A DNA stretch of 64,000 bases from a virus. Its lineage: Duplodnaviria; Caudoviricetes. The position numbers were made by a program, and so were the translations under genes. Under the pieces are notes generated by a model that was given only the letters and a program-made list of their open reading frames with translations, was not told the DNA's origin and did no database searches. The stretch lies in IMG/VR virus record IMGVR_UViG_3300023174_000037; one strand, written 5' to 3'. Positions 2-37,623 of this stretch are shown here, in pieces. Each line of letters opens with the position of its first letter. Position 1 is the stretch's first letter.

Positions 2-3000
2 CAACATGGTACTTTGTAATTTTTCAGGATCAGCTGATTCTTCAGCCAACCAATCGCCTCCGGCACTGCGGAATTCTATGTAGCCATCTTGTATGTGAGC
101 ACTGGTATACTTGCCTTGTCCTACACCCTTTTGAATTTCTCGTTGTGCTAATTCAAGCAAGCCATGTTGCATCAACTTCAAAGCACCGGCTGGATCTGCA
201 CGACCTGATTTGAGATTTTCACGGAAGCTCTTCATTGCTGACTTGGTGTAAGTGTTGGCTTCGCGGCCAAATTGTTGTAGAACATATTCGTCACCTAGGA
301 ACAGAATAAGTTTTAGGTAGTCAACATCACCACCTTTGTATGGAACACTAACGCCCATGTGTAGGCCAGTTGAATCGTTAGTGTAAGCATTGCCTTCTGT
401 GCTGTTGGCCCAGTCTGTGACTTGTTGTAATTTTTCCAAGGCCACTAGTAATGGCATTGGAGGACTTACTATTTCCAAACCGTAGTCTTCACGATCATCT
501 GGACTCAAACTTGAATCTGGCTCTACAATCCATTGGCCTTCTTTACGTGTGGTACTGTGATAATTTGAACTTACTTTGACTGGCATGTCTACAACACCTT
601 GTAAACTGTTTCCAATATCATCCCAATCACGTGACCCATCATTGCCGCCGCCACCGGTCATGTAGGGCCAGTCTAAACCGTACTCACTGGCCACATCACT
701 CATGTAGCGTAGGCCCGCATCATCAAAGAAACCAGAGTCGTCATCTATCTGATAATTGTCGCGGAAATCATCCAGTGCGGCATCCCAGTTTGCACCTTCT
801 TTTCTTACTTCGTCGGCTACTAGATCATCCAATAGGCCTTCGGCTTCGCTTTGTGCATCTAGGTATTTTTCATACAGGGGATTTTCTTTTGCGTAGGCTT
901 GCTGTTCGCTTGATCGGGTAAATTTAGGAGCAGTTTCTCCAGCTTTGATAATTTCATTTATTTCTTCATCTGACAAGTCCAACAAGGCCAACTGTTTTTG
1001 TATCTCGTCGTCCTCATCCCAATCACCTTCGTCAACCAGCACTTTACGAATCAAATCTTCGGCTTCGTCTCTAAATTCTCGAGTCATTTGTTCGTCGTAC
1101 CACTCGTAATAGGCTTCATCCAACTGTTCTTGTAGTCGTGCTTCTTGCCTAGAACTTAGTCCACCATATTCGCCGTTGTTAAAGAAGTCTATAATCTGAC
1201 TGATACTGCGAACACGTTCGTCGGCATCATAGTCGGGTTCCATTTCGTAATCACTGTCACCATTGTTGGTGGTGTCACGGAAGATCAACTCAGCTTCAAA
1301 TCCGGCACGTATACCTTCGGCTTCTGGACTAGTGGCCCATTTCATCAGGGCCGACGGTGACATTTTAACTTCGTCCAACTGTTCACTTTCGGCCAAGGCA
1401 AACAGTTTCTTTTCTGCTACCTGCTTGTTGAACATTGTATAACTACGCAAGAATTCTTTTTCTTGTCGTGTAAGTTCGCGGCCTTGTTGGACTTTGGCCA
1501 CTAAAAATTTATAATAGTCTGCTTTGTCACGATTCTTGGATACCGGTGCTTGAATATTTTCTTTAAACTGCGCCAGCTCTAATGCTAATTTTTCAAACAG
1601 GCCATTGGCCTTGGCAATCTGCGGAACGCCTTGCTTGTTTGTTTTGAGATTTAATTTGTTGGCTTCTTTGCCAATTTGTCCCGGCTTGATGTCCACTGTG
1701 AGTGCCATACTATAACGTGGATCCTTGGCCTGTTTCTTTGTGGGAATATAACCCGATGCACCTTCGTTGGTTGGCCCAGACGGCTTTTGCTGATTTTGTT
1801 TTTGTAGTTGATATAGCCGACTTTGATTTTGTGCGTTGACTTCACCGCGCTGAGCACGAATAAAATTGTTTAGTTCTTGAGCAACGTCAGCTTGTATTAC
1901 TGTGCTATTGTATTGTTTGGCATTGTAAAGAACACGAGCCGCATCCATTGGCCGCATGCCTTGTTGAGTAGCACAACCACTGAGACTGCCTCCGCCGATG
2001 ATGCAGGCACTTAATGCGGCCACAGCCGATCCTTTAAGGCCTTCATCAACATCTTCTTCGTGTAGGTTGTTGGCTTGTTTCTTTGTGGAAATGTAACTTG
2101 ATGCTGATTCAGTGACAGAAAGTCCATGTTTTTGAATGAACTCTTGCATTTTGTTTTCAATCCATTGATCTTCTTGACCAGCCATTCTTATTTTATATAG
2201 ATTTTTGTCATTGTATTCATAGCGACTTTGGTCTTGAAAGTATTTGGAGATTTGTTCAAATGCAGCAAAAAGCTCTGGAGTCTTGGTATACTTTGATCGT
2301 TGATAGTTGGAATATTTAGAAATTTTAGTTTGTGCCCATTTTGCCCGCAGATCTTTTTCTGGAACTTGATAGTCGCTAGCTATTTTTTCTACTTCTTTTT
2401 TTATTGTTTCTGGAGTAACATCCAAGTTTCTGTCAACTCGATAGGTTATGATCTGTATTAATTTTTTGTAGGCATCTTCTAGTCCAGATTTGGGCCTGGA
2501 CATAACCGCAGGATTCTTAACAGTTGAACCAGTGACGGATATGGCTCGTTTGACTTGGTTGACCAACTGATCATAAGTGTAGGTCCGCGGGGCCACACTG
2601 CGATAAATCAGTTGATCACCTTGGTACACATAAAAATATTCACCTTTGACCACTACCTTGTAGCCCAATATACCATAGGCTTTTTCAATTTCTTCTTTTA
2701 AGTTTTCTGCTTGACCCACCGCAAAGTATTCTGGATGTAGTCTAGCATAGTCACGCATCAACACACCAGCTCTGGCATTGGCTTCGTTTTCATACGGACT
2801 GCCAGTTTCGCCAGCATCAGTAGGAACCGACTCACGTTCATGTTGATGACGATGTGTAAGTTCGTGTGCCACTGTTCTGAGCACATCCATAATATGGCGA
2901 TGTCCCCAGGCCACTTCTAATAGATTATGATCGTCGATGTAACGACCAAATGTTTTGTTTCTTACTGACCATTGTGGATCTTTACGCAACTTGACCATCG

Positions 3001-3865
3001 GCATGCTTTTGAGTTTTAATTCTTTAAAACAAAAATCAATAAAGTCCGTTAGTATTTCTTCATCAGACAGTGTCGCAGGTGCCGCTTCAAGAGAAACTGT
3101 GTCAGCTTCGACCACTGTGGGGGTGCGGAATCCGTATGTTACTCTGGGTTTGGTTGTTTTTTCTGCTAAACTAAATTCTCGATCCTTGGCAGCATTTCTA
3201 GCATCATACAGGTCTTTAATTAGTCCTTGACTACGCAATATTTTGAATGCTAAATTTTCTGGACCAAACTCGCCATGTGCTTCTAATCCAGTTTGGCGCA
3301 TCCGTTTAATTTTTTCTGCCAGACTAGTCATGCGTTTTAAACTGCCGCTCTTGATAGCTGACTCAATTTGGCGGCCAACTTTTTCAAACTTGTTGCGTGT
3401 GCTGGTGTCGTTGACTACGCTCTTGACTCTACGTGGAACCTGTATCCAGTCGTTGTTCAACAAGGAATATATGCCCTGACTGATGTGCGGCTTGTCAGCA
3501 TCTTGCACATACAATTCCACATCAGCACCACCAATCTTAATATCGTGTTGTTCGTTATACTGAAACTTTTTGGCATCAAACAGTTCACGGTAAACAGGGT
3601 TATCTGGCATGTCTACTACCAAGTGCAAATCAATATCGCTGTTGGGAGTATATGTGTAAGCCGCATTTGATCCGCTGATAGTAATGTCTTGAATTGCTAG
3701 ATCTGTTACGCCTAAAAACTCACGAAAATCGTCGGCTATTTCCAGCAGGCGTTCACGCACTTCAGGCCGCAAATGTTCACGATCGTCCCACAGGCGTGGA
3801 TTTAATTGATCATTAAATTTAACAGCGTCTTCAAGATTATAAGAGTCTAATTCCGTGATGTTCAT
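2..3865 (-). CDS. Giant multidomain protein, partial (>1288 aa, runs off the left edge): Pol-beta-type nucleotidyltransferase + HExxH zinc-peptidase-like domain + unknown modules + COOH-NH2 ligase type 2 (amidoligase)
   Basis: Absent from the ORF track because it has no stop inside the window. Hand translation of sampled segments from ATG 3865 stays in one open frame. Motifs: ISGSNAAYTYTPNSDIDLH (NTase), AHELTH...YENEA (zincin), and GFEAE, EPDSSL, GLEIVSPP, NDSTGLHMGVS, YIEFRSAGG (amidoligase). Confidence 0.85.
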   Translation of the reverse strand, partial: MNITELDSYNLEDAVKFNDQLNPRLWDDREHLRPEVRERLLEIADDFREFLGVTDLAIQDITISGSNAAYTYTPNSDIDLHLVVDMPDNPVYRELFDAKKFQYNEQHDIKIGGADVELYVQDADKPHISQGIYSLLNNDWIQVPRRVKSVVNDTSTRNKFEKVGRQIESAIKSGSLKRMTSLAEKIKRMRQTGLEAHGEFGPENLAFKILRSQGLIKDLYDARNAAKDREFSLAEKTTKPRVTYGFRTPTVVEADTVSLEAAPATLSDEEILTDFIDFCFKELKLKSMPMVKLRKDPQWSVRNKTFGRYIDDHNLLEVAWGHRHIMDVLRTVAHELTHRHQHERESVPTDAGETGSPYENEANARAGVLMRDYARLHPEYFAVGQAENLKEEIEKAYGILGYKVVVKGEYFYVYQGDQLIYRSVAPRTYTYDQLVNQVKRAISVTGSTVKNPAVMSRPKSGLEDAYKKLIQIITYRVDRNLDVTPETIKKEVEKIASDYQVPEKDLRAKWAQTKISKYSNYQRSKYTKTPELFAAFEQISKYFQDQSRYEYNDKNLYKIRMAGQEDQWIENKMQEFIQKHGLSVTESASSYISTKKQANNLHEEDVDEGLKGSAVAALSACIIGGGSLSGCATQQGMRPMDAARVLYNAKQYNSTVIQADVAQELNNFIRAQRGEVNAQNQSRLYQLQKQNQQKPSGPTNEGASGYIPTKKQAKDPRYSMALTVDIKPGQIGKEANKLNLKTNKQGVPQIAKANGLFEKLALELAQFKENIQAPVSKNRDKADYYKFLVAKVQQGRELTRQEKEFLRSYTMFNKQVAEKKLFALAESEQLDEVKMSPSALMKWATSPEAEGIRAGFEAELIFRDTTNNGDSDYEMEPDYDADERVRSISQIIDFFNNGEYGGLSSRQEARLQEQLDEAYYEWYDEQMTREFRDEAEDLIRKVLVDEGDWDEDDEIQKQLALLDLSDEEINEIIKAGETAPKFTRSSEQQAYAKENPLYEKYLDAQSEAEGLLDDLVADEVRKEGANWDAALDDFRDNYQIDDDSGFFDDAGLRYMSDVASEYGLDWPYMTGGGGNDGSRDWDDIGNSLQGVVDMPVKVSSNYHSTTRKEGQWIVEPDSSLSPDDREDYGLEIVSPPMPLLVALEKLQQVTDWANSTEGNAYTNDSTGLHMGVSVPYKGGDVDYLKLILFLGDEYVLQQFGREANTYTKSAMKSFRENLKSGRADPAGALKLMQHGLLELAQREIQKGVGQGKYTSAHIQDGYIEFRSAGGDWLAEESADPEKLQSTML

Positions 3866-3871
3866 AGATAG

Positions 3872-3877
3872 TATTTA
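3872..3877 (-). promoter_or_regulatory. Late-type promoter TAAATA, 6 nt upstream of ATG 3865 (leaderless)
   Basis: Minus strand reads ggTAAATActatctATG with no Shine-Dalgarno. Confidence 0.6.
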
Positions 3878-3884
3878 CCGGATA

Positions 3885-3910
3885 AACAAAAGCCGCTAAC
3901 TTAGCGGCTT
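3885..3910 (-). terminator. Intrinsic terminator after 3933..4826
   Basis: Inverted repeat AAGCCGCT...AGCGGCTT followed by TTGTTT on the minus strand. Confidence 0.75.
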
Positions 3911-3932: not shown

Positions 3933-4826
3933 TTATTTTTTCTTTTTCTTGCTGGATGCTAATACTTTAGCTTCAACTGGTTTAGCAGGTGATGTATCCA
4001 CCACTGTTGGGCCTCCCAATGCTGTGCCGTTTTGTACGGCCAATGCATGTAGATCTTTGTAAAGTTGATCTTGCGTTTGGAAGTCAAACACATAGGTGCC
4101 CGTGTGACGTAATAGCACACGCTTATCAACCCACACTTGGCCGCCAATGTCGCGCCAGTTTTCGCAGAAAGTCCAGTCTTCGCTATAATAGCGGTTTTCG
4201 CGCACTGCTGTGTCAAAGTAGGTTTTCATGTAGGGATTAAGTTCCGCAGGCAAACCAATATCGTTAATAAAAGGTTTGGTAGCAGGGTGAGCATTTAATT
4301 TCTCAAATACATCACGTTTGATCAACATAAAACCTGTGCCGGTTTTGCTGACTTCTTGTAGAGTTCCATCTTCACTGACTTGGGCGCCATCAAATCCGTT
4401 GACACACCATTTGACCGGCAGGCTCTTCATTGGATATAGGCCGCCGATGACATCTTTTTGTGCGTTGAGCATGACCAGTAGGTGCCATGGTTCCCAACCA
4501 ATGTCCGCATCAATAAACATCAGATGAGTGCTTTCTTTGTTGTGTAAGAACTTGGCTGTAAGAGTGTTACGAGCACGTGAAATTAAACTTTCATTGGTCA
4601 TGGTTTCCATGGTCCAATCAATGCCTAGTTGACGACAAGTGTTTGACCACTTGATATAGCTCATGAATGTTGATTCTGTCAGCATGCCGCCATAACACGG
4701 CATACAGATATGCACACGGGTGGTTTTTAAATAGTCAACGTTGACTTGAATCTGTTGTTGACCTGGCTGTAATGCCGGCGCTTGCGGGGTTGCTGTGGTT
4801 GGTGTTGCAGGTTGGGTTTCAGCCAT
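3933..4826 (-). CDS. Glycosyltransferase-like (GT-A fold) protein
   Basis: ICMPCYGG, NESLISRARN, THLMFIDADIGW (DxD) and YYSEDWTFC motifs; SD GAGGA. Confidence 0.7.
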   Translation of the reverse strand: MAETQPATPTTATPQAPALQPGQQQIQVNVDYLKTTRVHICMPCYGGMLTESTFMSYIKWSNTCRQLGIDWTMETMTNESLISRARNTLTAKFLHNKESTHLMFIDADIGWEPWHLLVMLNAQKDVIGGLYPMKSLPVKWCVNGFDGAQVSEDGTLQEVSKTGTGFMLIKRDVFEKLNAHPATKPFINDIGLPAELNPYMKTYFDTAVRENRYYSEDWTFCENWRDIGGQVWVDKRVLLRHTGTYVFDFQTQDQLYKDLHALAVQNGTALGGPTVVDTSPAKPVEAKVLASSKKKKK

Positions 4827-4876: not shown

Positions 4877-5650
4877 CTATTTTTTCCTAGCCTTGTGTTC
4901 GTCGATATAGTCTCGACTTTCCTTAATGGTTTTAATTTTATTCTTTAGCCGTTGGATATTTTCTTGTATTCGAGCCAATTTGTGCTCACGCATTACACTT
5001 ACAGGATTGTCTCCAGCAAATACTGCTTCTTGTCCGTATACAACAGCTTCTTGAGGAGCATTGACTCCCAGACGTTGATCAAATATGGCCCGCAGTTCCG
5101 GGTCCGGTGATCCATACAGGTCTGTGATAATTTGATCACGGTCTGCATCGTTGCCATCCAGGTATAGTTTGCGAATTTGGCTGGCACTGTTGGCATCTAC
5201 GCCCTTGACACGAAAGTTCACAGTTGGAGTCACTGCAACATAACCGTGCTGTGTCATTGGCTTCATACCTTTTTTGTTGTCAGGCAAGGGCTGTAAGTAA
5301 CTGGCAGATCCGTCTTTTTTGGGTGCAAAGTTAAACCGTTCAGCATCTTTTGCACTGACAGCAAACACCAACACAGTGTTGGCTCGTTCTTCATCGGACA
5401 AACTGCTTGTAATTTCCGCAGCTTGATAGGGATTTTTTACTTTGACAATGTGGCCAGACGGAACACCCAGTTTGGTCATCATTGTTACTTTGTCTGCGTA
5501 TTCAAACGGGCTGGTTTCAGGATCTTGAACACCACTGCTGGCAATATACACATTGTTATCGCCAAATTGTTGAGTCAGCCAATCATAACTGGCCATATGA
5601 CCTAGATGAAAAGGATGAAAGCGTCCGGGATATATTACAAGATAATTCAT
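4877..5650 (-). CDS. Cytidylyltransferase-like (HIGH-superfamily nucleotidyltransferase) protein
   Basis: N-terminal IYPGRFHPFHLGH and a late NSASQIRK motif; late promoter TAAATA 7 nt upstream. Confidence 0.7.
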   Translation of the reverse strand: MNYLVIYPGRFHPFHLGHMASYDWLTQQFGDNNVYIASSGVQDPETSPFEYADKVTMMTKLGVPSGHIVKVKNPYQAAEITSSLSDEERANTVLVFAVSAKDAERFNFAPKKDGSASYLQPLPDNKKGMKPMTQHGYVAVTPTVNFRVKGVDANSASQIRKLYLDGNDADRDQIITDLYGSPDPELRAIFDQRLGVNAPQEAVVYGQEAVFAGDNPVSVMREHKLARIQENIQRLKNKIKTIKESRDYIDEHKARKK

Positions 5651-6634: not shown

Positions 6635-7336
6635 CTATTTAGCCGGGATTATTTCTAGAGTTTTTCTTATTAGGCCCGGTGTTACCAAACTCAGCATGGT
6701 TAACCACGAGACTGTATTATAATCAACAAAAAAGTAATCTTGTGTTCGAGTGAATTTTAGTGGCACCCATTGTATCAATGCTGGACTGAGTCTAACATCG
6801 GGTTGACTTGCTAAAAAGTTTACCAACTGAGTTTTTTGCTCTGTAGTTAATTTGCCTATTTTAAAATAACTGCGCCATTGATGACGTGGATCTTTTAATT
6901 GAATTGTATTTTTAGGTCGACCCACAATAGCTCTGGTATATTCAGTATACAACACGCCGGGCAATTTGCTCACAGTGTTAATTAAAGCCAAATCATTGGT
7001 ATAAACATAGCCGGTAAATGAACTGACGACTAATTTAAATGTTGCTGGAGTGGTTAATAATACGTCAGCCAACTTATGCAAATTCTCAACTGTTGTTTCG
7101 GTTATTTTGTTTGACTGATTAGACAATACTGTGGTGGGGGTACTGCTGTGCATGGTTTGACTGATTGACCGCCAAGCGATTCTGCGCTCAATCATACGAT
7201 CAATTTGTGCATGGTCCAGAGTTCGTAGGCAATTGACTTCTTCTAAATGAAATCTTATGCAATACTCAAACTGACTGTAAAACAGTTGATCTTTAACAAC
7301 AGGTTTAAACATTTGCACCCGTTTGGTTAAGCACAA
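6635..7336 (-). CDS. Hypothetical protein (likely start near 7312, MFKPVV)
   Basis: Long ORF overlapping the ClpA stop. Confidence 0.6.
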   Translation of the reverse strand: MCLTKRVQMFKPVVKDQLFYSQFEYCIRFHLEEVNCLRTLDHAQIDRMIERRIAWRSISQTMHSSTPTTVLSNQSNKITETTVENLHKLADVLLTTPATFKLVVSSFTGYVYTNDLALINTVSKLPGVLYTEYTRAIVGRPKNTIQLKDPRHQWRSYFKIGKLTTEQKTQLVNFLASQPDVRLSPALIQWVPLKFTRTQDYFFVDYNTVSWLTMLSLVTPGLIRKTLEIIPAK

Positions 7337-9581
7337 TATATCCGTTTTCGTCTACTGTAGGAGCGAGCAACTGCGGTTCAATGGCAAATTCAACTCGATC
7401 ATCGACCATTGTGGCAGTTATAGTGCAGTGTTCCAGTCGATCAAATAAGATGCGCTTGCTCAAAGGTACACGGATTAATTCGTCAATTTTGCGTCCCAAG
7501 GGTCTGGCACCCATTTTGCTATCGTAACCTTTGTCAGCCAACATGTCAACCACAGCTTCAGTCAAGTTCAAGCGGATGTTTTTGTTTAACAAACTATCTT
7601 TGAGTTCATCAACAAATTTAAGCACAACTTTCTTAATGGCCAAGGTATCTAGTTTTTCAAACTTGCATACACAGTCGATACGATTGCGTAGCTCAGGTTT
7701 AAAGAACTCTTTCATGGCCTTGTCTTCACTGCCGGTGCGTTCTAGCGCCTGTCCAAAGCCAATGTTGTTGTTTTCGTTGTCTCTGGCACCCAAGTTTGAT
7801 GTCATGATAATGATACAGTTCTTAAGATCCACTGTTTTGCCACTGCTACTGGTAATACGTGCTTCATCCAACATTTGCAACATGATATTGATAACATCGG
7901 GGTGAGCTTTTTCAATTTCATCAAACAACAAGATACTGAACGGATTTTTGCTTACATCCGAAATCAATTTGCCGCCGCCCACTGTGCCAGATTCAAAACC
8001 CACATAGCCCGGAGGAGCACCAATCAAGCCTGACACTGTATGACGTTCTTGATACTCACTCATGTCATACTTGAGCAATTTCATATCTAAATGTTCGCTC
8101 AGTAGTTTGGCCAATTCTGTTTTGCCTGTGCCGGTTGGACCTAGGAACAAAAAGCTGGCAATAGGACGTTTAGCATTACCAATGCCCGAAAAGTTGATAT
8201 ACACACGTTCCAGCACACGGTCCACAGCCACATCTTGACCGTAGAGCTTTTGCTTGATATTAGTTTCTAAATCAACAATCTTGGCACTGCGTTCATTTTC
8301 CAGCCGATCTAAAGGAACTGCTGTGACCCGACTCAGTTGTTCCATGATCATTTGTTTGGTAACAGTCACATTACCTTTGTCCTTAACACGCTCTTTGGCA
8401 CAAGCACCGTCCAGCAAATCTATACTTTTGTCTGGGTTTTTGCGATCGTGTATATAACGTCCACTTAAATGAACTGCGGCTGTGATAGCTTCTGTATCAA
8501 TTAACACATTGTGGAATGTTTCTAAACGTGGACTAAGTCCAATAAGGATTTGCTCTGTGGTTACATCATCGGGTTCATCAATGCCGACACGATGGAAACG
8601 ACGCATGAGTGCGCGATCCTTTTCAAACGATTCGTAGTATTCTTCCCAGGTCGTACTGGCCACCACTTTGATATTGCCACGAGTGATAGCAGGTTTAAGC
8701 ATATTGGCCATGTCTAAACTGCCTTGACTGCCTGCTCCTGCGCCCTGCATAGTGTGTGCTTCATCTACAAACAAGATACAGTTTTTCTTGGTTTCAAGTG
8801 CAGTAATAACAGCCTTGAACTTTTCTTCGAATTCGCCGCGATATTTGCTGCCAGCTAGCAAACTGCCCACTTCCAAACTCCATAGTTCATGTCCTTTGAG
8901 AAACTCTGGCACACGATTGGCCTGCATTTCTTGGGCAAGTCCTTCGACGATGGCAGTTTTACCTACACCCGGATCTCCTACCATGAGTACGTTGGCTTTG
9001 AACTTGCGGGCCAGCACAGTGATCATTTCGTCCAGTTCTTCAGAGCGTCCGATCATGGGTTCTAGGCGATCTTCTCTGGCCAGGTCAGTTAAACAGACGC
9101 AATGTTCTGCAAGTATTTCTGTTGCCTGTTGATTAGTAAGTTTGACATCACTTTGTTTATAATTTGCTTGATAAAATTCTGCAAACTCTTGTTTCTTTAC
9201 TCCAAATTTAAGCAAGAAATAGTGTGCATGACTATTGGTCTCACTCATGATGGCCAAGTATAAATCCAAGGTACTGACAGTTCTGCGACCAGTAAATAGC
9301 ACCTGTGTTAATGCACGATTAAACACCCGCTCCAGCGCATTGGTTTTCTTAGGCGGAACTGGCGTGGCTGCAACCACTGTGACTATATTGCCTAGATAAG
9401 ACGCTAGTTCTTGTTCAAGGCGTGTCAGGTCAGTGCCAAACTTTTCCAACACTCGACGAAAGGGATCATGTTTAATTAAAGACAATAAAACATGTTCAGT
9501 CATTACATATTCATGATGGCTGTCACGTGCCATTTTAACCGCGGCATCGACTATTTGTTCAATTTCAGGATTGTTTTGCAT
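7305..9581 (-). CDS. clpA: ATP-dependent Clp protease ATP-binding subunit ClpA-like (two AAA+ domains)
   Basis: Clp N-domain (HEYVMTEH), Walker A GDPGVGKT and GPTGTGKT, FVDEAH, LFDEIEKAHP, MGARPL. Confidence 0.92.
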   Translation of the reverse strand: MQNNPEIEQIVDAAVKMARDSHHEYVMTEHVLLSLIKHDPFRRVLEKFGTDLTRLEQELASYLGNIVTVVAATPVPPKKTNALERVFNRALTQVLFTGRRTVSTLDLYLAIMSETNSHAHYFLLKFGVKKQEFAEFYQANYKQSDVKLTNQQATEILAEHCVCLTDLAREDRLEPMIGRSEELDEMITVLARKFKANVLMVGDPGVGKTAIVEGLAQEMQANRVPEFLKGHELWSLEVGSLLAGSKYRGEFEEKFKAVITALETKKNCILFVDEAHTMQGAGAGSQGSLDMANMLKPAITRGNIKVVASTTWEEYYESFEKDRALMRRFHRVGIDEPDDVTTEQILIGLSPRLETFHNVLIDTEAITAAVHLSGRYIHDRKNPDKSIDLLDGACAKERVKDKGNVTVTKQMIMEQLSRVTAVPLDRLENERSAKIVDLETNIKQKLYGQDVAVDRVLERVYINFSGIGNAKRPIASFLFLGPTGTGKTELAKLLSEHLDMKLLKYDMSEYQERHTVSGLIGAPPGYVGFESGTVGGGKLISDVSKNPFSILLFDEIEKAHPDVINIMLQMLDEARITSSSGKTVDLKNCIIIMTSNLGARDNENNNIGFGQALERTGSEDKAMKEFFKPELRNRIDCVCKFEKLDTLAIKKVVLKFVDELKDSLLNKNIRLNLTEAVVDMLADKGYDSKMGARPLGRKIDELIRVPLSKRILFDRLEHCTITATMVDDRVEFAIEPQLLAPTVDENGYIVLNQTGANV

Positions 9582-9653: not shown

Positions 9654-10439
9654 TTATTGTTCACAATTTTGAACAATAGCGTCCATTAATGGTTGTGGAA
9701 TATGAGCAGGTATGACAGCATTTACCCGCACAAACAAGTCGCCAGGCGCATTACCTTTTTGTCCAAGTCCACGTCCTTTTAATCTAAATGTGGTTTTGGC
9801 CTGTGTTCTTGGCGGAATGGTTAAAGTAAATTGATTGCCTAAAATATCTTGAATTAAGATGTCCTTGCCCAAAATAAGATCCCATACGCTTATCTCTTGA
9901 TCTACAGTTAAGTTAGGGCCTTGACGATGCCATTTGGGATTGGGATGAACTCTAAAGGTTATTACCAAATCTATTCCACCAGGTCCTACCCCAGCATACT
10001 GAACACTGTCACCGTCATCAATATTGGCAGGTATATCTATTTCTATAACTTGTGTACCTTGCGGAGTGCCTACACTGATAGTTTTACGACCAGCTATGGC
10101 TACATCTTGTAGGGTGATCCACAAGGTCATTTGTGCTCGATTTGCTCGTTGATGTGGGTGTTGAAATCTAGTGCCAAACACATCAAATATAGTTTGGAAA
10201 TCAAACCCTCCAGGACCGCCGTGTTGAAAACCAAACCCTGGTGGTGGTCGTGGATTGTTGTATTCAGCACGTTTTTGTTCGTTGCCTAGGGTGTCATATG
10301 CCTGTTGAATTTCTTGGAATTTGGCTTTGTTGCCACCTTTGTCAGGGTGGTGCTGACTTGCGAGCTTACGATAAGCCCTTTTAATTTGATCAGGAGTAGC
10401 GTTGCGGTCGACGCCAAGAGTTTGATAATAATCAGCCAT
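9654..10439 (-). CDS. dnaJ: DnaJ/CbpA-type co-chaperone (no Zn finger)
   Basis: DYYQTLGV...AYRKLASQHHPDKGG J-domain, G/F-rich region, C-terminal GDLFV. Confidence 0.9.
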   Translation of the reverse strand: MADYYQTLGVDRNATPDQIKRAYRKLASQHHPDKGGNKAKFQEIQQAYDTLGNEQKRAEYNNPRPPPGFGFQHGGPGGFDFQTIFDVFGTRFQHPHQRANRAQMTLWITLQDVAIAGRKTISVGTPQGTQVIEIDIPANIDDGDSVQYAGVGPGGIDLVITFRVHPNPKWHRQGPNLTVDQEISVWDLILGKDILIQDILGNQFTLTIPPRTQAKTTFRLKGRGLGQKGNAPGDLFVRVNAVIPAHIPQPLMDAIVQNCEQ

Positions 10440-11064: not shown

Positions 11065-11550
11065 TTAAATTTCAGGGTGTGGTGGTTGTACCGGTGCACC
11101 AAAGGCAGGTGCTGGTGTAGGCTTGGCCGCAGGTGCTCCAAAACTTGGAGCAGTGCTTACTGAGTTACCACCTAGCGGTGTGCCGCCAAAACTTGGTGCT
11201 GGTGTTGATACAGGCGCTGGGTTAACAAAACTTGGAGTCGGTGTAGGTGGTGCTATTCCACCGTTGTTGGCACCATTGAGTTTTTCCTGTGTGCGACCAT
11301 ATGCGGCAATACCTAGTATGGCACCCATGGCCATATGGAATAGGCCGGCACCTTGCAAGGTAATTGGACTCCATTGTGTTTCCACACGGCCTCCGCCTAT
11401 GACTTGTACCAGACTCCACAGCACTGGGAACAACACAAAGTCGGCCATGCAAACAAACATATACATCCACCCCATGGCTGGACGCCATTTTGAATTCATC
11501 CAGTCTTCGTTTTTCTTAGAACTTTCGCTTTTGACTTCTTCAGCGGGCAT
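11065..11550 (-). CDS. Holin (3TM, GTA-holin-like) with Pro-rich tail
   Basis: WMNSKWRPAMGW, hydrophobic segments, GAILGIAAYGRTQEK; lies in the lysis cassette. Confidence 0.75.
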   Translation of the reverse strand: MPAEEVKSESSKKNEDWMNSKWRPAMGWMYMFVCMADFVLFPVLWSLVQVIGGGRVETQWSPITLQGAGLFHMAMGAILGIAAYGRTQEKLNGANNGGIAPPTPTPSFVNPAPVSTPAPSFGGTPLGGNSVSTAPSFGAPAAKPTPAPAFGAPVQPPHPEI

Positions 11551-12271: not shown

Positions 12272-12882
12272 TTTCCAATGCTTTCGTAGATCTTGCGTTG
12301 GTTGTTATACCACTGCTGCCAGGCCTTTAGTTTTTCTGCGTTTTCGTGGCAGGCACCGTAGTTTTCAATGACTCGGTCGAGGAGACGACTGGCTTCAACT
12401 CCACTGGGGGTTCCATCAGTTGCGGCGGCACGCTGGGGAACTTCATTACGACTGGCACTGTCGTGCAGGCTGACAGTAGACTGAGGCAAACTGCACTGAG
12501 CATCCAGTTGCTGGCCCGCCACTTCTTTGATGATTTCTCTTGTGATGTAAACATTTTCTTTGACCACCTTTACTTTTTCAATTATTTTGGTTTCAATCAC
12601 AGTGTTGACCTGCTGTGATTTTTCTTCTGCAATTTGGATTTGTTGCTTCATTTCAGCTATTTGGTCTCTGTAGTTGATACCACCGTAGAAATAAGCAGCA
12701 ATGATCAGGGCCACAACACCTGCTAATTCTGCAGGCAAACGATACTGGCCCATGAGTGGAATCCAACTGACCAATTTGCTGGCCACATACAGTATCACAC
12801 CTGCCGCAAACAATAGATATGTAATCCAAACAAAAATACTGTCAGGGATTAACTGCAATATCCATTGTAGTTGCCACATCAA
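12268..12882 (-). CDS. Rz-like inner-membrane spanin
   Basis: N-terminal TM segments then coiled coil; directly follows the endolysin; contains an embedded lipoprotein ORF. Confidence 0.65.
   Translation of the reverse strand: MMWQLQWILQLIPDSIFVWITYLLFAAGVILYVASKLVSWIPLMGQYRLPAELAGVVALIIAAYFYGGINYRDQIAEMKQQIQIAEEKSQQVNTVIETKIIEKVKVVKENVYITREIIKEVAGQQLDAQCSLPQSTVSLHDSASRNEVPQRAAATDGTPSGVEASRLLDRVIENYGACHENAEKLKAWQQWYNNQRKIYESIGK
12327..12554 (-). CDS. Rz1-like outer-membrane spanin embedded in another frame (probable start ATG 12503)
   Basis: LSLLSAC lipobox followed by Pro-rich TTVPVVMKFPSVPPQLMEPP; fully nested in the Rz-like gene. Confidence 0.65.
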   Translation of the reverse strand: MFTSQEKSSKKWRASNWMLSAVCLSLLSACTTVPVVMKFPSVPPQLMEPPVELKPVVSSTESLKTTVPATKTQKN

Positions 12883-13505
12883 TCAGCACCTAACACATGC
12901 TTGGCATGCTCATAGTGTTTTTTACGATCTTCAAGACCAATTGTACCACCGTTGATACGTTTTGTCATGGTAAGAATATCATCCTTGTCGGCCCACTGAT
13001 TGAGATTATTGGTTTCCCAGAACCAGCAAGCACCTTGTACCGCGCCTTCAAAAGTTTCTAGATAAGCTGGAACTTGCTCCACCGGAGTTTCTATGCTGTC
13101 AGCAAAGTTTGAATAGTTGCTTTTGCCTGTGAGCTGTATGAGTCCACGACCACAGTAGCGATAGCCATCGCCTGACGCTTCGTCTCCGTTGCCCATTCTA
13201 TTAGCATATATTCTGTTGGCAATGGCTTCGGCTTTGTTGGGCAAACTGGCATACTGGTTGGCCAACTCATCTGTAGGAAAATACTTAGGGAATATTTTTC
13301 TTAGACTGGCCGCACGGTAGTTTAAGTTTTCTTTGAGGAACACAAAGTTTCCGCTTTCGTGGGCGCACTGTGCTATAAAAGCAGCCACACGTGGCGGTGT
13401 GTCAATACCGTAGTCGGATAACAATTGGTTTAAAGCATTGGTCCATTGCTCTACATAAGGATTGTTGCCGATACAGGCGCCGAGTTGTTGTTGGGTAATT
13501 TGCAT
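12879..13505 (-). CDS. Endolysin, glycoside hydrolase family 19
   Basis: AAFIAQCAHESG, ENLNY, YRYCGRGLIQLTGKSNY, MTKRINGGTIGLEDR. Confidence 0.92.
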   Translation of the reverse strand: MQITQQQLGACIGNNPYVEQWTNALNQLLSDYGIDTPPRVAAFIAQCAHESGNFVFLKENLNYRAASLRKIFPKYFPTDELANQYASLPNKAEAIANRIYANRMGNGDEASGDGYRYCGRGLIQLTGKSNYSNFADSIETPVEQVPAYLETFEGAVQGACWFWETNNLNQWADKDDILTMTKRINGGTIGLEDRKKHYEHAKHVLGAD

Positions 13506-30109: not shown

Positions 30110-31174
30110 TTAAGTTAATGTAATATTACCCCAGGATACACCGTTGTAACCTTGATATGTATTACCAACCACTATTAACATACCAACAACTGGATTTGAA
30201 ATGGCAGCATTGCGGGCAGTTGCATTAGCATATACAGGTAATTGGAAAGCTGTAGTTGCGGATATATTATTTCCGGTAATATTTCCTGCAACACTGACAT
30301 TGCCAGGCATGGTCCAATTGCCATCAGTATCAAATGTTGTGACATACGTGGCGACATTGCCCAACCCACCTGGCGTTTGAGCAATAGATATATTTTCTCC
30401 TGCTGCTATCACCAAAGAGTCCGGAAATGACACATAGTCCGGACCGGTGAATGTCAAGATACCGGTTGAAAATCTGCCGGGCAACAATATTTCACTGCGT
30501 TTATTAAAGTTGGCAGCTGCACCAAGTAAACTTGATACTCCTAGAGCAGAGTAATCATTAAGAAAAGCCCATGCCAAGTCTGGATCAGCCACGTTGGCTG
30601 ACATAAGCAAATTACCAGTTGACGAATTGATGCTTACGCCATAAAAAGCTCCGGCACGAACATTACCAGTAACTGATAACGAACTTAGTGTGCCAACCGT
30701 TGTGATATTTGGTTGTGAATTTGTGTATACTGTTCCAGCAACCAACGCATTGCCAACTTGTCCACTGACATTGGCACCTGCTACTGCAAGTGCGGTGTTG
30801 GCCACATTGGCCAAAGCCACAGCACCCGACACATTGGCACCTGCTACTGAGTTGGCAGTGGTAGCGTAGGTCACTGCTCCTACCACATTGGCACCTGCTA
30901 CTGAGTTGGCAGTGGTAGCGTAGGTCACTGCTCCTACCACATTGGCACCTGGAATATTGGTCAAAGCGTTTCCGTTGCCAATGTATTGAGTGCTGGTAAC
31001 TGATCCGTTTACTGTTAACGAAGTTAAATTGCCAACCGATGTAATATTTGGTTGTGCCGCAAAAACTACAATATTAGCCGTAGAGACGTTGTTGGCAACA
31101 TACGCAAAATTAGCGTCGAGCTCTGCGGCCGGAACCCTACCGCTGGCATTGGCAAAAGTAAAAGGAACAGTCAT
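30110..31174 (-). CDS. Tail-fibre-like protein
   Basis: Paralogous N-terminus MTVPFTFAN..LDANF; repeated AGANV units. Confidence 0.7.
   Translation of the reverse strand: MTVPFTFANASGRVPAAELDANFAYVANNVSTANIVVFAAQPNITSVGNLTSLTVNGSVTSTQYIGNGNALTNIPGANVVGAVTYATTANSVAGANVVGAVTYATTANSVAGANVSGAVALANVANTALAVAGANVSGQVGNALVAGTVYTNSQPNITTVGTLSSLSVTGNVRAGAFYGVSINSSTGNLLMSANVADPDLAWAFLNDYSALGVSSLLGAAANFNKRSEILLPGRFSTGILTFTGPDYVSFPDSLVIAAGENISIAQTPGGLGNVATYVTTFDTDGNWTMPGNVSVAGNITGNNISATTAFQLPVYANATARNAAISNPVVGMLIVVGNTYQGYNGVSWGNITLT
30831..30951. repeat. Perfect 54-bp tandem duplication inside the fibre gene (18-aa unit ANVVGAVTYATTANSVAG)
   Basis: acattggcacctgctactgagttggcagtggtagcgtaggtcactgctcctacc occurs twice, followed by a partial third start. 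Confidence 0.9.
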
Positions 31175-35700: not shown

Positions 35701-36681
35701 CTAGAATAATGTTCCAACGTCGACATTAATAGACGATGGTGCGTTAACTGTGCCCATGTTAAGATTCCCTGCGGATGTCAAGGCAAAAATCCATTGTATT
35801 GGATTACTGTAGGTGTTAGCTGCAATGTATCCAAAATCCCACATACCATACAAATTATTAACCGCGTTAACTAACCCGTATAACTGTCCAGTGACCACAG
35901 CATTTACGTTGCCAGCGGTAACATCTACGTTACCAACCACCGTGGCCGACCCTGTCAGTGCTAAATTGTTGCCGGCTAAATTGCCGGTGTAGGTTGGTAA
36001 GAACGCAGCCACATTGGCATCGTTATAATTTCCACTGCCTCCTCCACCACTGCCAATAAACGGTGCTCCATTGGCATAGAAATAACCATCAGTTGAAATT
36101 GCGCCAGGCGCTAAATTACCAGTGTAAGTTGGTAAGAAAGCGGCCACGTTGGCGTTGCCGTATACAGCGGGTGTTCCTGTAGCAAAGGCAATGTTGCCTA
36201 AGATATAATTACCCGAAATATTGCCACCAGAGCTTACTTGTCCAGTGGTTAAAATATTGCCGCCTCTGACGTTGCCAGTGGCCGTTACATAGCCAGTGAT
36301 ATTGGCGCCACTGGAATTGAATACTACCACATTGGCTATTCCACCAACGCTGACTCTAACAGGTGCATTGGCTGTGGAAATACGGACATTACTGGTGCCG
36401 TTGGCAATCTGGGTGGTGGTAACATTACCTGACTGCGATATTTCTGCCCAAACATCGGTAGTTCCGTTGTATTCGGCAAAACAATAGTAAAATGCATTGG
36501 AGTCGTACGCATACCAACCGGGTTGATCACCGGCGGAACCTAGTAACGTTGCAGGTGGAGATGTCTGGGCTCGTAGGTATAATTCAGTAAAATTTTCATT
36601 GGTAATAATGAAAGAGTTACGTAATGCGGTACCTTGCCCGTCATTGGGGGCAGCACCTACGCCAATCGTTTGTTGAGTCAT
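35701..36681 (-). CDS. Tail-fibre-like protein
   Basis: IGVGAAPNDGQGTALRNSF...NENFTELY N-terminus; GNV repeats; late promoter at 36703-36708. Confidence 0.7.
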   Translation of the reverse strand: MTQQTIGVGAAPNDGQGTALRNSFIITNENFTELYLRAQTSPPATLLGSAGDQPGWYAYDSNAFYYCFAEYNGTTDVWAEISQSGNVTTTQIANGTSNVRISTANAPVRVSVGGIANVVVFNSSGANITGYVTATGNVRGGNILTTGQVSSGGNISGNYILGNIAFATGTPAVYGNANVAAFLPTYTGNLAPGAISTDGYFYANGAPFIGSGGGGSGNYNDANVAAFLPTYTGNLAGNNLALTGSATVVGNVDVTAGNVNAVVTGQLYGLVNAVNNLYGMWDFGYIAANTYSNPIQWIFALTSAGNLNMGTVNAPSSINVDVGTLF

Positions 36682-36745: not shown

Positions 36746-37072
36746 TTAGCCTGGACTGAAACTGCTGCCGCAACCACAAGTGGTCACTGCTGTGGGGTTT
36801 TTGATGCTAAAAGTAGCACCATATTGGTCTTCTTTGTAGTCTACTTCTGCACCTTGAAGATAGCCGCCGCTCATGCTGTCAACTAGGACTTGGACACCGT
36901 GATAGTCTAGATCCCAATCATCTTCGTTTTTTACTTCGTCTAGGGTAAAACCGTATTGCATGCCACTACAGCCGCCACCCTGCACAAAAACACGTAGTTT
37001 AATGTTAGGGTTATTTTCTTCGGCAATAATGTCTTTGATTTTTGCCACTGCATTTTCTGTAATTGTAATCAT
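36746..37072 (-). CDS. erpA: A-type Fe-S carrier, ErpA/IscA family
   Basis: [16 protein letters not shown] ... [14 protein letters not shown]; start ATG 37072 overlapping the SOD stop. Confidence 0.92.
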
Positions 37073-37623
37073 ATTCTTTCGTTGCAAACGTTCCAATCAA
37101 TGATTTTCCAGATGTTGTCTAGATAACGCTCTTTGTCCCATTGGTAGTCCAAGGCCCAAGCGTGTTCCCACCAGTCTACTAAAACACAGATATCTGTCCT
37201 AACCTGATGGTTTGGGATAGTTTTAATCGTGCCCGATGTGCTGAGATATACCCAGCCCGATCCCTGGATGCCCATGGCCACCTTTTTAAATTCTGCTTTA
37301 AAGTCTTCATAGGTTTTGAAGTTGGTTTCAATAAGTTCTAACACAGCACCTTTAGGGCGATTTGCGCCTTTGGGCTCTTTTAGTTGTGGGAAAAATTTGT
37401 TATGTAAAAAACTGCCAGCACGATTGAAATCTTTGTTGCCTTCGTCAGCATTATAACGCTTGGCATAGCCTTTGGCCAAATGCTCGTAATGGTATTCGAT
37501 TGTGGCTGGACTCATTACCGGTTCCAGCGCCTTGTGAGTGTAGGGCAAAGGAGTAGTTTCCAACTTGGCTGGACGAGTTGAGGCTTCTAATAATTCGATA
37601 TCTTGTCTTATACTGGTATGCAT
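37069..37623 (-). CDS. sodB: Fe/Mn superoxide dismutase
   Basis: LPY...TIEYH, GSFLH, QGSGW.YL, DWWEHAW; the four metal ligands appear retained. Confidence 0.85.

Follow-up and report, generated by a model that had tools for sequence, protein, structure and literature searches.

A giant multi-enzyme protein of an uncultured T4-like phage and the hydrophobic-x-glutamate junctions at which its relatives exchange modules

We analysed a 64,000-nucleotide stretch of viral DNA (IMG/VR record IMGVR_UViG_3300023174_000037; Duplodnaviria, Caudoviricetes), hereafter the window, and in particular the giant open reading frame (ORF) at its left end. Sequence comparison indicates that the window holds the N-terminal two thirds of a giant 'polyvalent' effector protein, and that its carrier is an uncultured freshwater T4-like jumbo phage. 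Relatives of this protein gain, lose and swap modules at fixed [ILVM]-x-Glu junctions, which are kept at the peptide level. The features of the locus are listed below, with residue numbers in amino acids (aa) and model confidence as the predicted local distance difference test score (pLDDT).

2–3865, minus strand: giant ORF, N-terminal 1288 codons; ATG at 3865, left end open, C-terminal part beyond the window
3851–3865, minus strand: leader MNITE, aa 1–5; ends in I-x-E, disordered in the model with pLDDT <50 for aa 1–6
3161–3850, minus strand: Pol-beta nucleotidyltransferase (NTase) with helical C-terminal domain, aa 6–235; ends at the invariant LAE 233–235
3074–3160, minus strand: disordered linker, aa 236–264, with VVE253 and SLE259; pLDDT <50 for aa 245–261
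2693–3073, minus strand: zincin metallopeptidase-like domain, aa 265–391, with HELTH 334–338 and E359; ends at LKE391
2108–2692, minus strand: variable cassette A, aa 392–586; a beta domain followed by helices, ends at VTE586
2042–2107, minus strand: linker copy 1, aa 587–608, S-ASSYISTKKQA...LHE and VDE608; pLDDT <50 for aa 583–606
1763–2041, minus strand: semi-variable helical module, aa 609–701; hydrophobic start with lipobox-like LSAC/LSGC, ends at TNE701
1559–1762, minus strand: linker copy 2 and conserved small module, aa 702–769, G-ASGYIPTKKQAKDPRY...; linker ASGYIPTKKQA at its start
1370–1558, minus strand: variable helical spacer, aa 770–832; ends in LAE826 and LDE832
2–1369, minus strand: glutamine-synthetase-like amidoligase, aa 833–1288, cut by the window edge; helical acidic insert of ~140 aa within the fold
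3872–3877, minus strand: TAAATA promoter-like element, 6 nucleotides (nt) upstream of the ATG; no Shine-Dalgarno sequence
3884–3909, minus strand: terminator-like hairpin GCCGCT...AGCGGC with T-run, closing the upstream gene, whose stop is at 3933–3935

A reading-frame scan of the window found no stop in the 1288 codons from the ATG at 3865 to base 2 on the minus strand. The gene was missed by the ORF track because no stop codon falls inside the window. The first-pass annotation had nevertheless proposed a frame of more than 1288 codons, and this frame was reproduced in independent assemblies: metagenome contigs from independent freshwater studies match it with 0 substitutions and 0 indels. 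A syntenic relative (L007) carries a complete orthologue of 2082 aa. L001, which at 95% identity is closest to the window, provides the C-terminal part that lies outside it. For this part and for the genes that follow, the orthologous loci of related contigs were read rather than the window genome. Orthologues range from 1300 to 2210 aa, with more than 1900 homologues on contigs of up to 370 kb. In an exhaustive search the family comprised 6548 representative clusters, 1619 of them at E ≤1e-30. Near-identical DNA was not found among cultured phages, and tblastn against 50,697 cultured-phage records matched only the NTase module, at a coverage of at most 20%. An RNA library (X14) contained six contig pieces of the giant gene, which as contigs cannot prove transcription, timing or strand. 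One low-depth contig joined position 1696 to 3504, with a 30-nt side, and was taken as a cross-match between relatives.

Three unrelated catalytic folds had been proposed for this frame, and profile searches, conserved residues and predicted folds agree on all three. Two AlphaFold models were built on diverse alignments, with mean pLDDT of 78.7 and 85.4; a PDB sequence search with the modules gave no match. The N-terminal domain matched phrog_36119 (E 1e-42) and fell just below the cut-off of Pfam PF01909 (20.6 bits, cut-off 21). It has the signature of the Pol-beta superfamily, hG[GS]-x9-13-D-h-[DE], as G65-S66...D77-I-D79, with E117 as third carboxylate and an alpha-beta-alpha-beta-alpha-beta core, and G65, S66, D77, D79 and E117 are at least 90% conserved in the diverse alignment. 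Its fold matched CdnE (CD-NTases), AadA, ANT (aminoglycoside nucleotidyltransferases), FAM46 and MNT with Z 6–7.2 (Foldseek/VIA), and also 2rff. The nucleotidyltransferase is apparently active.

The second domain has a zincin fold, with matches to Wss1 (Z 8.3), IrrE (7.8), selecase (7.8), abylysin (7.3) and anthrax LF (6.3), and also to CapP. Every family member has this domain inside its conserved N-terminal block, with HExxH intact and the third Glu conserved, and H334, E335, H338, E359 and E391 are at least 90% conserved in the diverse alignment. A more specific identity as Peptidase_M78 (IrrE/ImmA) was rejected (13.9 bits against a cut-off of 22, E 0.047); the domain has no more than the zincin fold in common with that family, and was filed as 'zincin-like'. 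The third domain matched PF12224 (Amidoligase_2) with 29.3–31.3 bits, above the cut-off of 22, and its E-x-E, H and R positions are invariant across relatives. In structure it matched maize glutamine synthetase (Z 12.0, root-mean-square deviation 3.6, 193 residues aligned), among 197 chains with Z of at least 8, and also YbdK.

The segments between these enzymes differ widely in how often they occur. The small module at aa 702–769 was present in 120 of 120 relatives and the helical module at aa 609–701 in ~44–57 of 120, and cassette A (block 397–603) in only ~15 of 120 close relatives. Searches of Pfam, PHROG and Atlas gave nothing usable for cassette A, for segment 703–832 or for the basic C-terminal tail seen in relatives. 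Module 609–701 matched phrog_4295, 'internal virion protein', weakly (E 0.0098). Within cassette A, aa 394–450 (window 2516–2686) resemble the N-terminal domain of AcrIF24 (Z 7.6), which for so small a domain is a lead only. Directly after VDE608, at aa 609–632 (window 1973–2041), a K is followed by a hydrophobic stretch and by LSAC and LSGC. This segment looks like a lipoprotein-type signal, but it lies ~600 residues into the chain and would need a cleavage to come to stand at an N-terminus.

The first-pass annotation had listed eleven hydrophobic-x-Glu motifs as module boundaries, and only part of this list stood. Across the protein, [ILVM]xE occurred 25 times, compared to 23.2 ± 4.0 in shuffled sequences (p 0.37), which is the frequency expected by chance. 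VDEG, LDEV, TNEG, VTES and LKEE were well conserved and lie in low-confidence segments between domains. Among 128 relatives, VDE608 was conserved in 94%, LDE832 in 97%, E701 in 97%, E586 in 94% and LKE391 in 73%; LKE391 was more than 90% conserved in the diverse alignment. FKEN, SLEA, VVEA and LHEE were kept in only 31–52% of the 128 relatives (VVE253 and SLE259 in 45–49%), and LAEE, at aa 1273, was ruled out as a boundary since it sits in a well-folded part of the amidoligase. Two further conserved sites lie outside the earlier list: ITE (aa 3–5; 96%) and LAE (aa 233–235; 100%). The low-confidence segments that hold candidate sites are aa 1–6, 245–261, 386–394, 583–606 and 695–705, together with the ...LAESEQLDEV... 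junction of the second model, where a low-confidence segment covers ...LFALAESEQLDEV.... Of the residues in aa 1–705, 15% are disordered, and five of the 13 sites of this region fell among them (p 0.036).

The family as a whole gave a much clearer pattern. As indels we took those of at least 40 aa between family members, giving 479 boundaries in 172 context classes. [ILVM]xE occurred at 49% of these boundaries (89 of the 172 context classes), compared to 18.7% of random positions, so that the proposed gain and loss of modules at Glu motifs was recovered when homologues were compared. We also counted motifs anchored to individual modules over unique contexts, where the chance of finding the motif at a fixed position is ~0.018. 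Ahead of the C-terminal NFxDG module, Glu directly preceded the module in 85 of 85 contexts and the full [ILVM]xE was present in 81, while the cassettes upstream were unrelated. The linker ASGYIP had a Glu one or two residues before it in all 166 unique contexts (full [ILVM]xE in 119), and the FAPSP module a preceding Glu in 12 of 13, in each case as full [ILVM]xE. The full motif also lay ahead of the amidoligase (87 of 97 contexts) and of internal NTase copies (8 of 9), at positions that are not fixed. At the NFxDG junction, seven different codons are used for the residue two positions before the Glu (P3), which is always V, L, I or M in the motif, and the residue in between (P2) is free; therefore, selection acts on the peptide. 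These family-level tests are decisive for the junction-motif pattern.

The same module can follow the motif in two settings, at the start of a separate gene and inside a giant protein. The gene start MRLRE|FAPSP corresponds to YNVNE|FAPSP, TLKE|FAPSP and ELKE|YAPS within giant proteins, and EFINE|NFADG...YHGST to QVAE|, GLAE| and EVKE|...LWHGSR in other settings. Stand-alone amidoligases begin MRYKHLLSE|EQLDEL where the giant protein has LAE|SEQLDE|V. Internal NTase copies follow ...IMTE|, ...YMIE|, ...TVTE| or ...DVVE|, at the place that the leader MNITE| occupies here. Replacement cassettes in relatives carry sigma-70 region 4 (PF04545, 54.9 bits), ParB_N, DUF6934 and PARP-like ADP-ribosyltransferase signatures (LWHGSR/LYHGST); cassette-bearing homologues are P0069, P0027, P0072, P0091, P0009, P0041, P0002 and P0017. 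Separate leader-tagged genes have DUF6934 as well, and Vibrio phages of the nt-1/ValKK3 group matched it weakly.

Most giant proteins, and some separate leader-tagged proteins, close with a very basic C-terminal tail (NFADGKGPGRPGD...GRKGQLARWQLNMRRG-KK), with 75 and 27 family hits. Examples are P0122:2020–2082, the C-terminus of P0123 and the products of L009:14638 and L012:7283. The tail follows an [ILVM]xE in all cases, and could serve to bind DNA or to anchor the protein in the core.

At one junction the DNA itself is repeated. The two copies of the ASxYIxTKKQA linker (2066–2104 and 1721–1759) have a DNA core of ~35 nt in common, with an exact 13-mer (CCACAAAGAAACA). A self-BLAST for internal repeats found none; the duplication was noticed by eye and confirmed by DNA alignment. 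The copies flank the lipobox module, which looks like the footprint of a cassette insertion by recombination. Judged from the nucleotides, the linker E-x-ASGYIPTKKQA is also a recombination joint at the DNA level for cassette exchange, and would therefore be the means by which cassettes get exchanged. At 1656–1696 (aa 724–737), other contigs in two DNA runs matched a 41-nt island only and diverged on both sides, which suggests that co-occurring relatives have short conserved DNA islands in common in the linker region.

The T4-type prohead protease that the first-pass annotation had presumed was indeed present in the lineage. Contigs G002 and G003, where orthologues of the giant ORF are also found (L009 and L003), encode a gp21-type protease (PF03420, 86.9 bits, cut-off 27) adjoining a coiled-coil scaffold-like protein and a gp23-type capsid protein (PF07068, 328 bits). 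A gp21-like protease gene is located at L018:1444–2094. The scaffold-like protein contained 25 motifs where 12.9 were expected, a two-fold enrichment. The N-terminal region of the capsid protein has YLKE|NAS, with a P' side that resembles the E|[SGN]AS of the linker. A tblastn search of the 64-kb window found no gp21, scaffold or acidic-protein homologue.

In T4, cleavage by gp21 takes place behind L/I-X-E, and targeting to the capsid depends on a sequence formed by the 10 N-terminal residues (PMC9026906); ipII and ipIII of T4 begin MKTYQEFIAE. In every related locus, four or five abutting genes with M[KR]xxEF[ILV]xE starts lie directly downstream of the giant ORF. In total, 42 such genes occurred in 12 loci, all directly downstream, and none in the upstream 10 kb. 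Among the 153 ORFs of the window, a loose version of the leader pattern was matched by the giant ORF only. Compared with the capsid-targeting leaders, its own start, MNITE|L, has the I-x-E and is 96% conserved, and the E-F core is absent.

Several leader-tagged or leader-like genes were noted in passing. The last leader-tagged genes (L007:20980–21186, L012:13061–13255 and equivalents) encode proteins of 64–70 aa, whose post-leader sequence (e.g. EFIRE|NASAGATSAGGIA) resembles the capsid protein after its putative maturation site (YLKE|NASAGSTTSGNIA). L007:17395–18321 and its equivalents encode a leader-tagged MRLRE|FAPAGG... protein with a GH19 chitinase/lysozyme-like domain (PF00182, 49.2 bits), which could be a capsid-packed wall hydrolase. 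The stand-alone NTases of the cultured T4-like phages S-CRM01 (g125; L022) and Cr30 (gp180; L023) have leader-like starts, MRHLESRTKHLISE| and MRKFSQLLE|, ending in [IL]-x-E. Both lie one gene from a cytidyltransferase-family gene, as is the case in the window (4877–5650), and both could be head cargo that has so far escaped recognition.

Upstream of the giant ORF, the terminator hairpin was found in 9 of 10 related loci, with changes in its loop, and TAAATA stood at a fixed distance from the start codon in 10 of 10. Counted over the 40 nt ahead of each of 76 gene starts of the window, TAAATA occurred 12 times compared to 0.95 expected (12.6-fold). The full T4 late-promoter octamer (TATAAATA) was not enriched in the window (1 against 3.7 expected). 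The TAAATA of the late promoter proposed earlier is present at 3872–3877. TAAATA also precedes the endolysin gene (12879–13505) and the genes at 30110–31174, 35701–36681 and 37069–37623, with structural-like genes among the set, and a TATAAT class precedes the gene for the Lon-like protease and those at 9654–10439 and 11065–11550. This pattern fits a late class, which would set the timing of the giant gene. The genes downstream of the giant ORF have no such element of their own, and because of this they look like one operon with the giant ORF; TAAATA sequences upstream of six leader-tagged genes were discarded, as their positions fall within the codons for the C-terminal tail encoded just before. 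Several TAAATA elements lie only 5–7 nt from an ATG, so that nearly leaderless mRNAs are implied. A 758-aa Lon-like/AAA+ 'ATP-dependent protease' is encoded at 7305–9581 on the minus strand (phrog_4871, E 4e-233), with synteny kept in L007.

We consider it reasonably probable, by analogy with T4, that the polyvalent protein is capsid cargo which a gp21-type prohead protease processes and whose pieces are injected with the DNA. The giant gene would be expressed late, and the precursor would be built into the prohead core. The prohead protease would then cut after the Glu of the junctions and release the enzymes, the best candidates being E5, E235, E391, E586, E608, E701 and E826/E832. The released pieces would enter with the DNA and act on host targets before phage gene expression, in takeover or anti-defence. 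A wider version of this proposal, which is plausible but falls short of being probable, is that T4-like jumbo phages run a 'plug-and-play' cargo, in which modules flanked by [ILVM]-x-Glu move between leader-tagged genes and giant polyproteins. A junction would then be a prohead-protease cut site and, at the conserved linker, a recombination joint as well. The capsid would become a programmable device that injects at least a dozen enzymes in finished form, and a cut at VDE608 would expose LSAC/LSGC as a proteolysis-gated membrane address for the injected fragment.

Three other explanations were weighed. The protein may be a classical polyvalent protein, delivered with the DNA and either left uncut or cut by its own zincin, be it ahead of injection or afterwards, with no part for a prohead protease; the Glu motifs would then be zincin sites or plain features of linkers. 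The zincin is indeed intact in every family member, with HExxH and a conserved third Glu, the vRNAP of N4 is packaged uncut, and metallopeptidase (MPTase) domains are given this same processing role in PMC5512222, which cites P1 DdrB. This explanation does not account for the neighbouring genes, which lack a zincin and yet have leaders ending in the same [ILVM]xE, matching the T4 capsid-targeting and gp21 motif. It is equally at odds with the two-fold enrichment of the motif in the scaffold protein of the lineage and with the occurrence of stand-alone modules with such leaders in zincin-free proteins. A weak further argument is that the proteins closest to the zincin in structure (Wss1, IrrE, minigluzincins) are not known to be Glu-specific processing enzymes. 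We therefore regard processing by the zincin, or none at all, as rather unlikely.

The chain might instead be a late cytoplasmic multi-enzyme that works fused and is never packaged, its junctions being flexible linkers and recombination joints. Several observations agree with this: the ASxYIxTKKQA linker is duplicated at the DNA level (~35-nt core, exact 13-mer) around an inserted module, co-occurring strains have short conserved DNA islands in common at the linker region, and the gene neighbourhood is no structural block. In contrast, the seven codons behind the hydrophobic P3 of NFxDG, with P2 free, indicate that the nucleotides are not the conserved thing, and flexible linkers driven by composition would not be expected to keep a hydrophobic residue two positions ahead of a Glu that never varies. 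Moreover, the leaders at gene starts end in the same motif, which recombination joints leave unexplained, and the adjacent genes have T4-like capsid-targeting leaders. We give this explanation a small chance at best. Finally, the long frame could be an artefact, either an assembly chimera or a fusion of separate genes by sequencing error, given the metagenomic source and the truncation of the gene at the edge of the window. Against this stand the identical contigs from independent studies, the more than 1900 full-length homologues on contigs of up to 370 kb and the 6548 representative clusters, and we consider an artefact practically negligible.

A number of observations weigh against processing by a prohead protease and injection from the capsid. 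Packaging, cleavage and injection are drawn by analogy with the internal proteins and Alt of T4, and the embedded zincin could be an alternative processing enzyme. Within the single protein, [ILVM]xE is at chance frequency and the enrichment of sites in disorder is modest (p 0.036). About 28% of the ASGYIP contexts, including TNE701 of this protein, are without a hydrophobic P3. The leader MNITE has just five residues and is without the E-F core of the neighbours' leaders. The window has no gp21 homologue, and the protease is on related contigs only. The neighbourhood consists of a cytidyltransferase, a Lon-like protease and lysis genes, with no classical structural block, and the stand-alone NTase of cultured T4-like phages sits among replication genes. 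Furthermore, none of the 50,697 cultured-phage records holds more than the NTase module.

Nonetheless, the interpretation as protease-processed capsid cargo appears well supported by the comparative evidence, with a junction motif that is weak in one protein and strong in the family. Those expectations that could be checked by computation, namely module exchange, the junction motif in two settings, the head module, the leaders and TAAATA, all turned out as anticipated. If the interpretation is true, the T4 principle of 'expression-packaging-processing', which in T4 covers three small internal proteins and Alt, operates in nature at a far larger scale. Thousands of uncultured lake and marine phage lineages would pre-load their heads with strings of enzymes that are cut during head maturation, with nucleotidyltransferases, peptidases, amidoligases, ADP-ribosyltransferase-like and DNA-binding modules as cargo. 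A large class of giant 'hypothetical proteins' encoded by jumbo phages would thereby be accounted for, and could be split by a simple rule, namely cutting after [ILVM]-x-E in disordered junctions. It would also point to a source of first-minute host-takeover and anti-defence effectors, and to design rules, taken from nature, for loading engineered T4 capsids with multi-protein cargo.

Giant multi-enzyme phage 'polyvalent proteins' with MPTase hubs, delivered with the DNA, were described by Iyer, Burroughs, Anand, de Souza and Aravind in 2017 (PMC5512222). As in that class, unrelated effector enzymes are gathered in a single giant polypeptide around a zincin-like MPTase 'hub', the domain content is highly variable, and delivery with the invading DNA and release as separate units are predicted. 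The present frame joins at least two unrelated effector domains (NTase, zincin, amidoligase and further modules). Its hub carries HELTH and E359 in a zincin fold (Z 7.3–8.3; Z 6.3 for anthrax LF, the template cited for the MPTase hub domain in PMC5512222). A late or virion-gene context is suggested by the conserved TAAATA class and the leader cluster downstream in related loci, but the immediate neighbours are not structural genes. In contrast, release was proposed in that study to occur by embedded peptidases, and neither sites for a trans-acting protease at each junction nor T4-type capsid-targeting leaders were described. Pol-beta NTases appeared there only in the conjugative-element type, and amidoligases were not mentioned. 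A jumbo-phage survey from the same group added nothing further on such polyproteins, and our literature searches yielded no account of effector polyproteins with prohead-protease sites as their joints. What sets the present case apart from the published class is the carrier, apparently a T4-like jumbo phage, and a junction motif that is the one of the prohead protease.

The amidoligase agrees with Amidoligase_2 (PF12224) in its Pfam match above the cut-off, its glutamine-synthetase catalytic fold and the conserved E-x-E, H and R, and differs by its helical acidic insert of ~140 residues and by being embedded in a polyprotein. Processing of the kind proposed here is known for jumbo-phage head proteins of phiKZ, 201phi2-1 and SPN3US, whose inner-body and ejection proteins receive many cuts after Glu from a gp21-related protease before they enter the host by ejection (PMC9026906). 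They belong to another lineage with the motif S/A-X-E, are mostly structural or of unknown function, and do not form strings of recognisable enzymes with swappable cassettes; in the tblastn search against cultured phages they had no sequence similarity to the giant protein.

The closest parallel for the proposed processing is found in the leader-tagged, gp21-processed internal proteins and Alt of T4 (PMC9026906, PMC3012670). The T4-type head module with a gp21-like protease is common to both, and the leaders of the neighbouring genes resemble MKTYQEFIAE and end in [ILV]-x-E. As with IPI, IPII, IPIII and Alt, the predicted cargo would act on the host at injection, and some family members have ADP-ribosyltransferase-like cassettes that recall Alt. 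The T4 proteins are single-domain with one leader, and Alt is also trimmed at its C-terminus (PMC9026906), whereas the giant proteins have up to ~10 modules per chain, with internal sites and, in the present protein, a leader of just MNITE.

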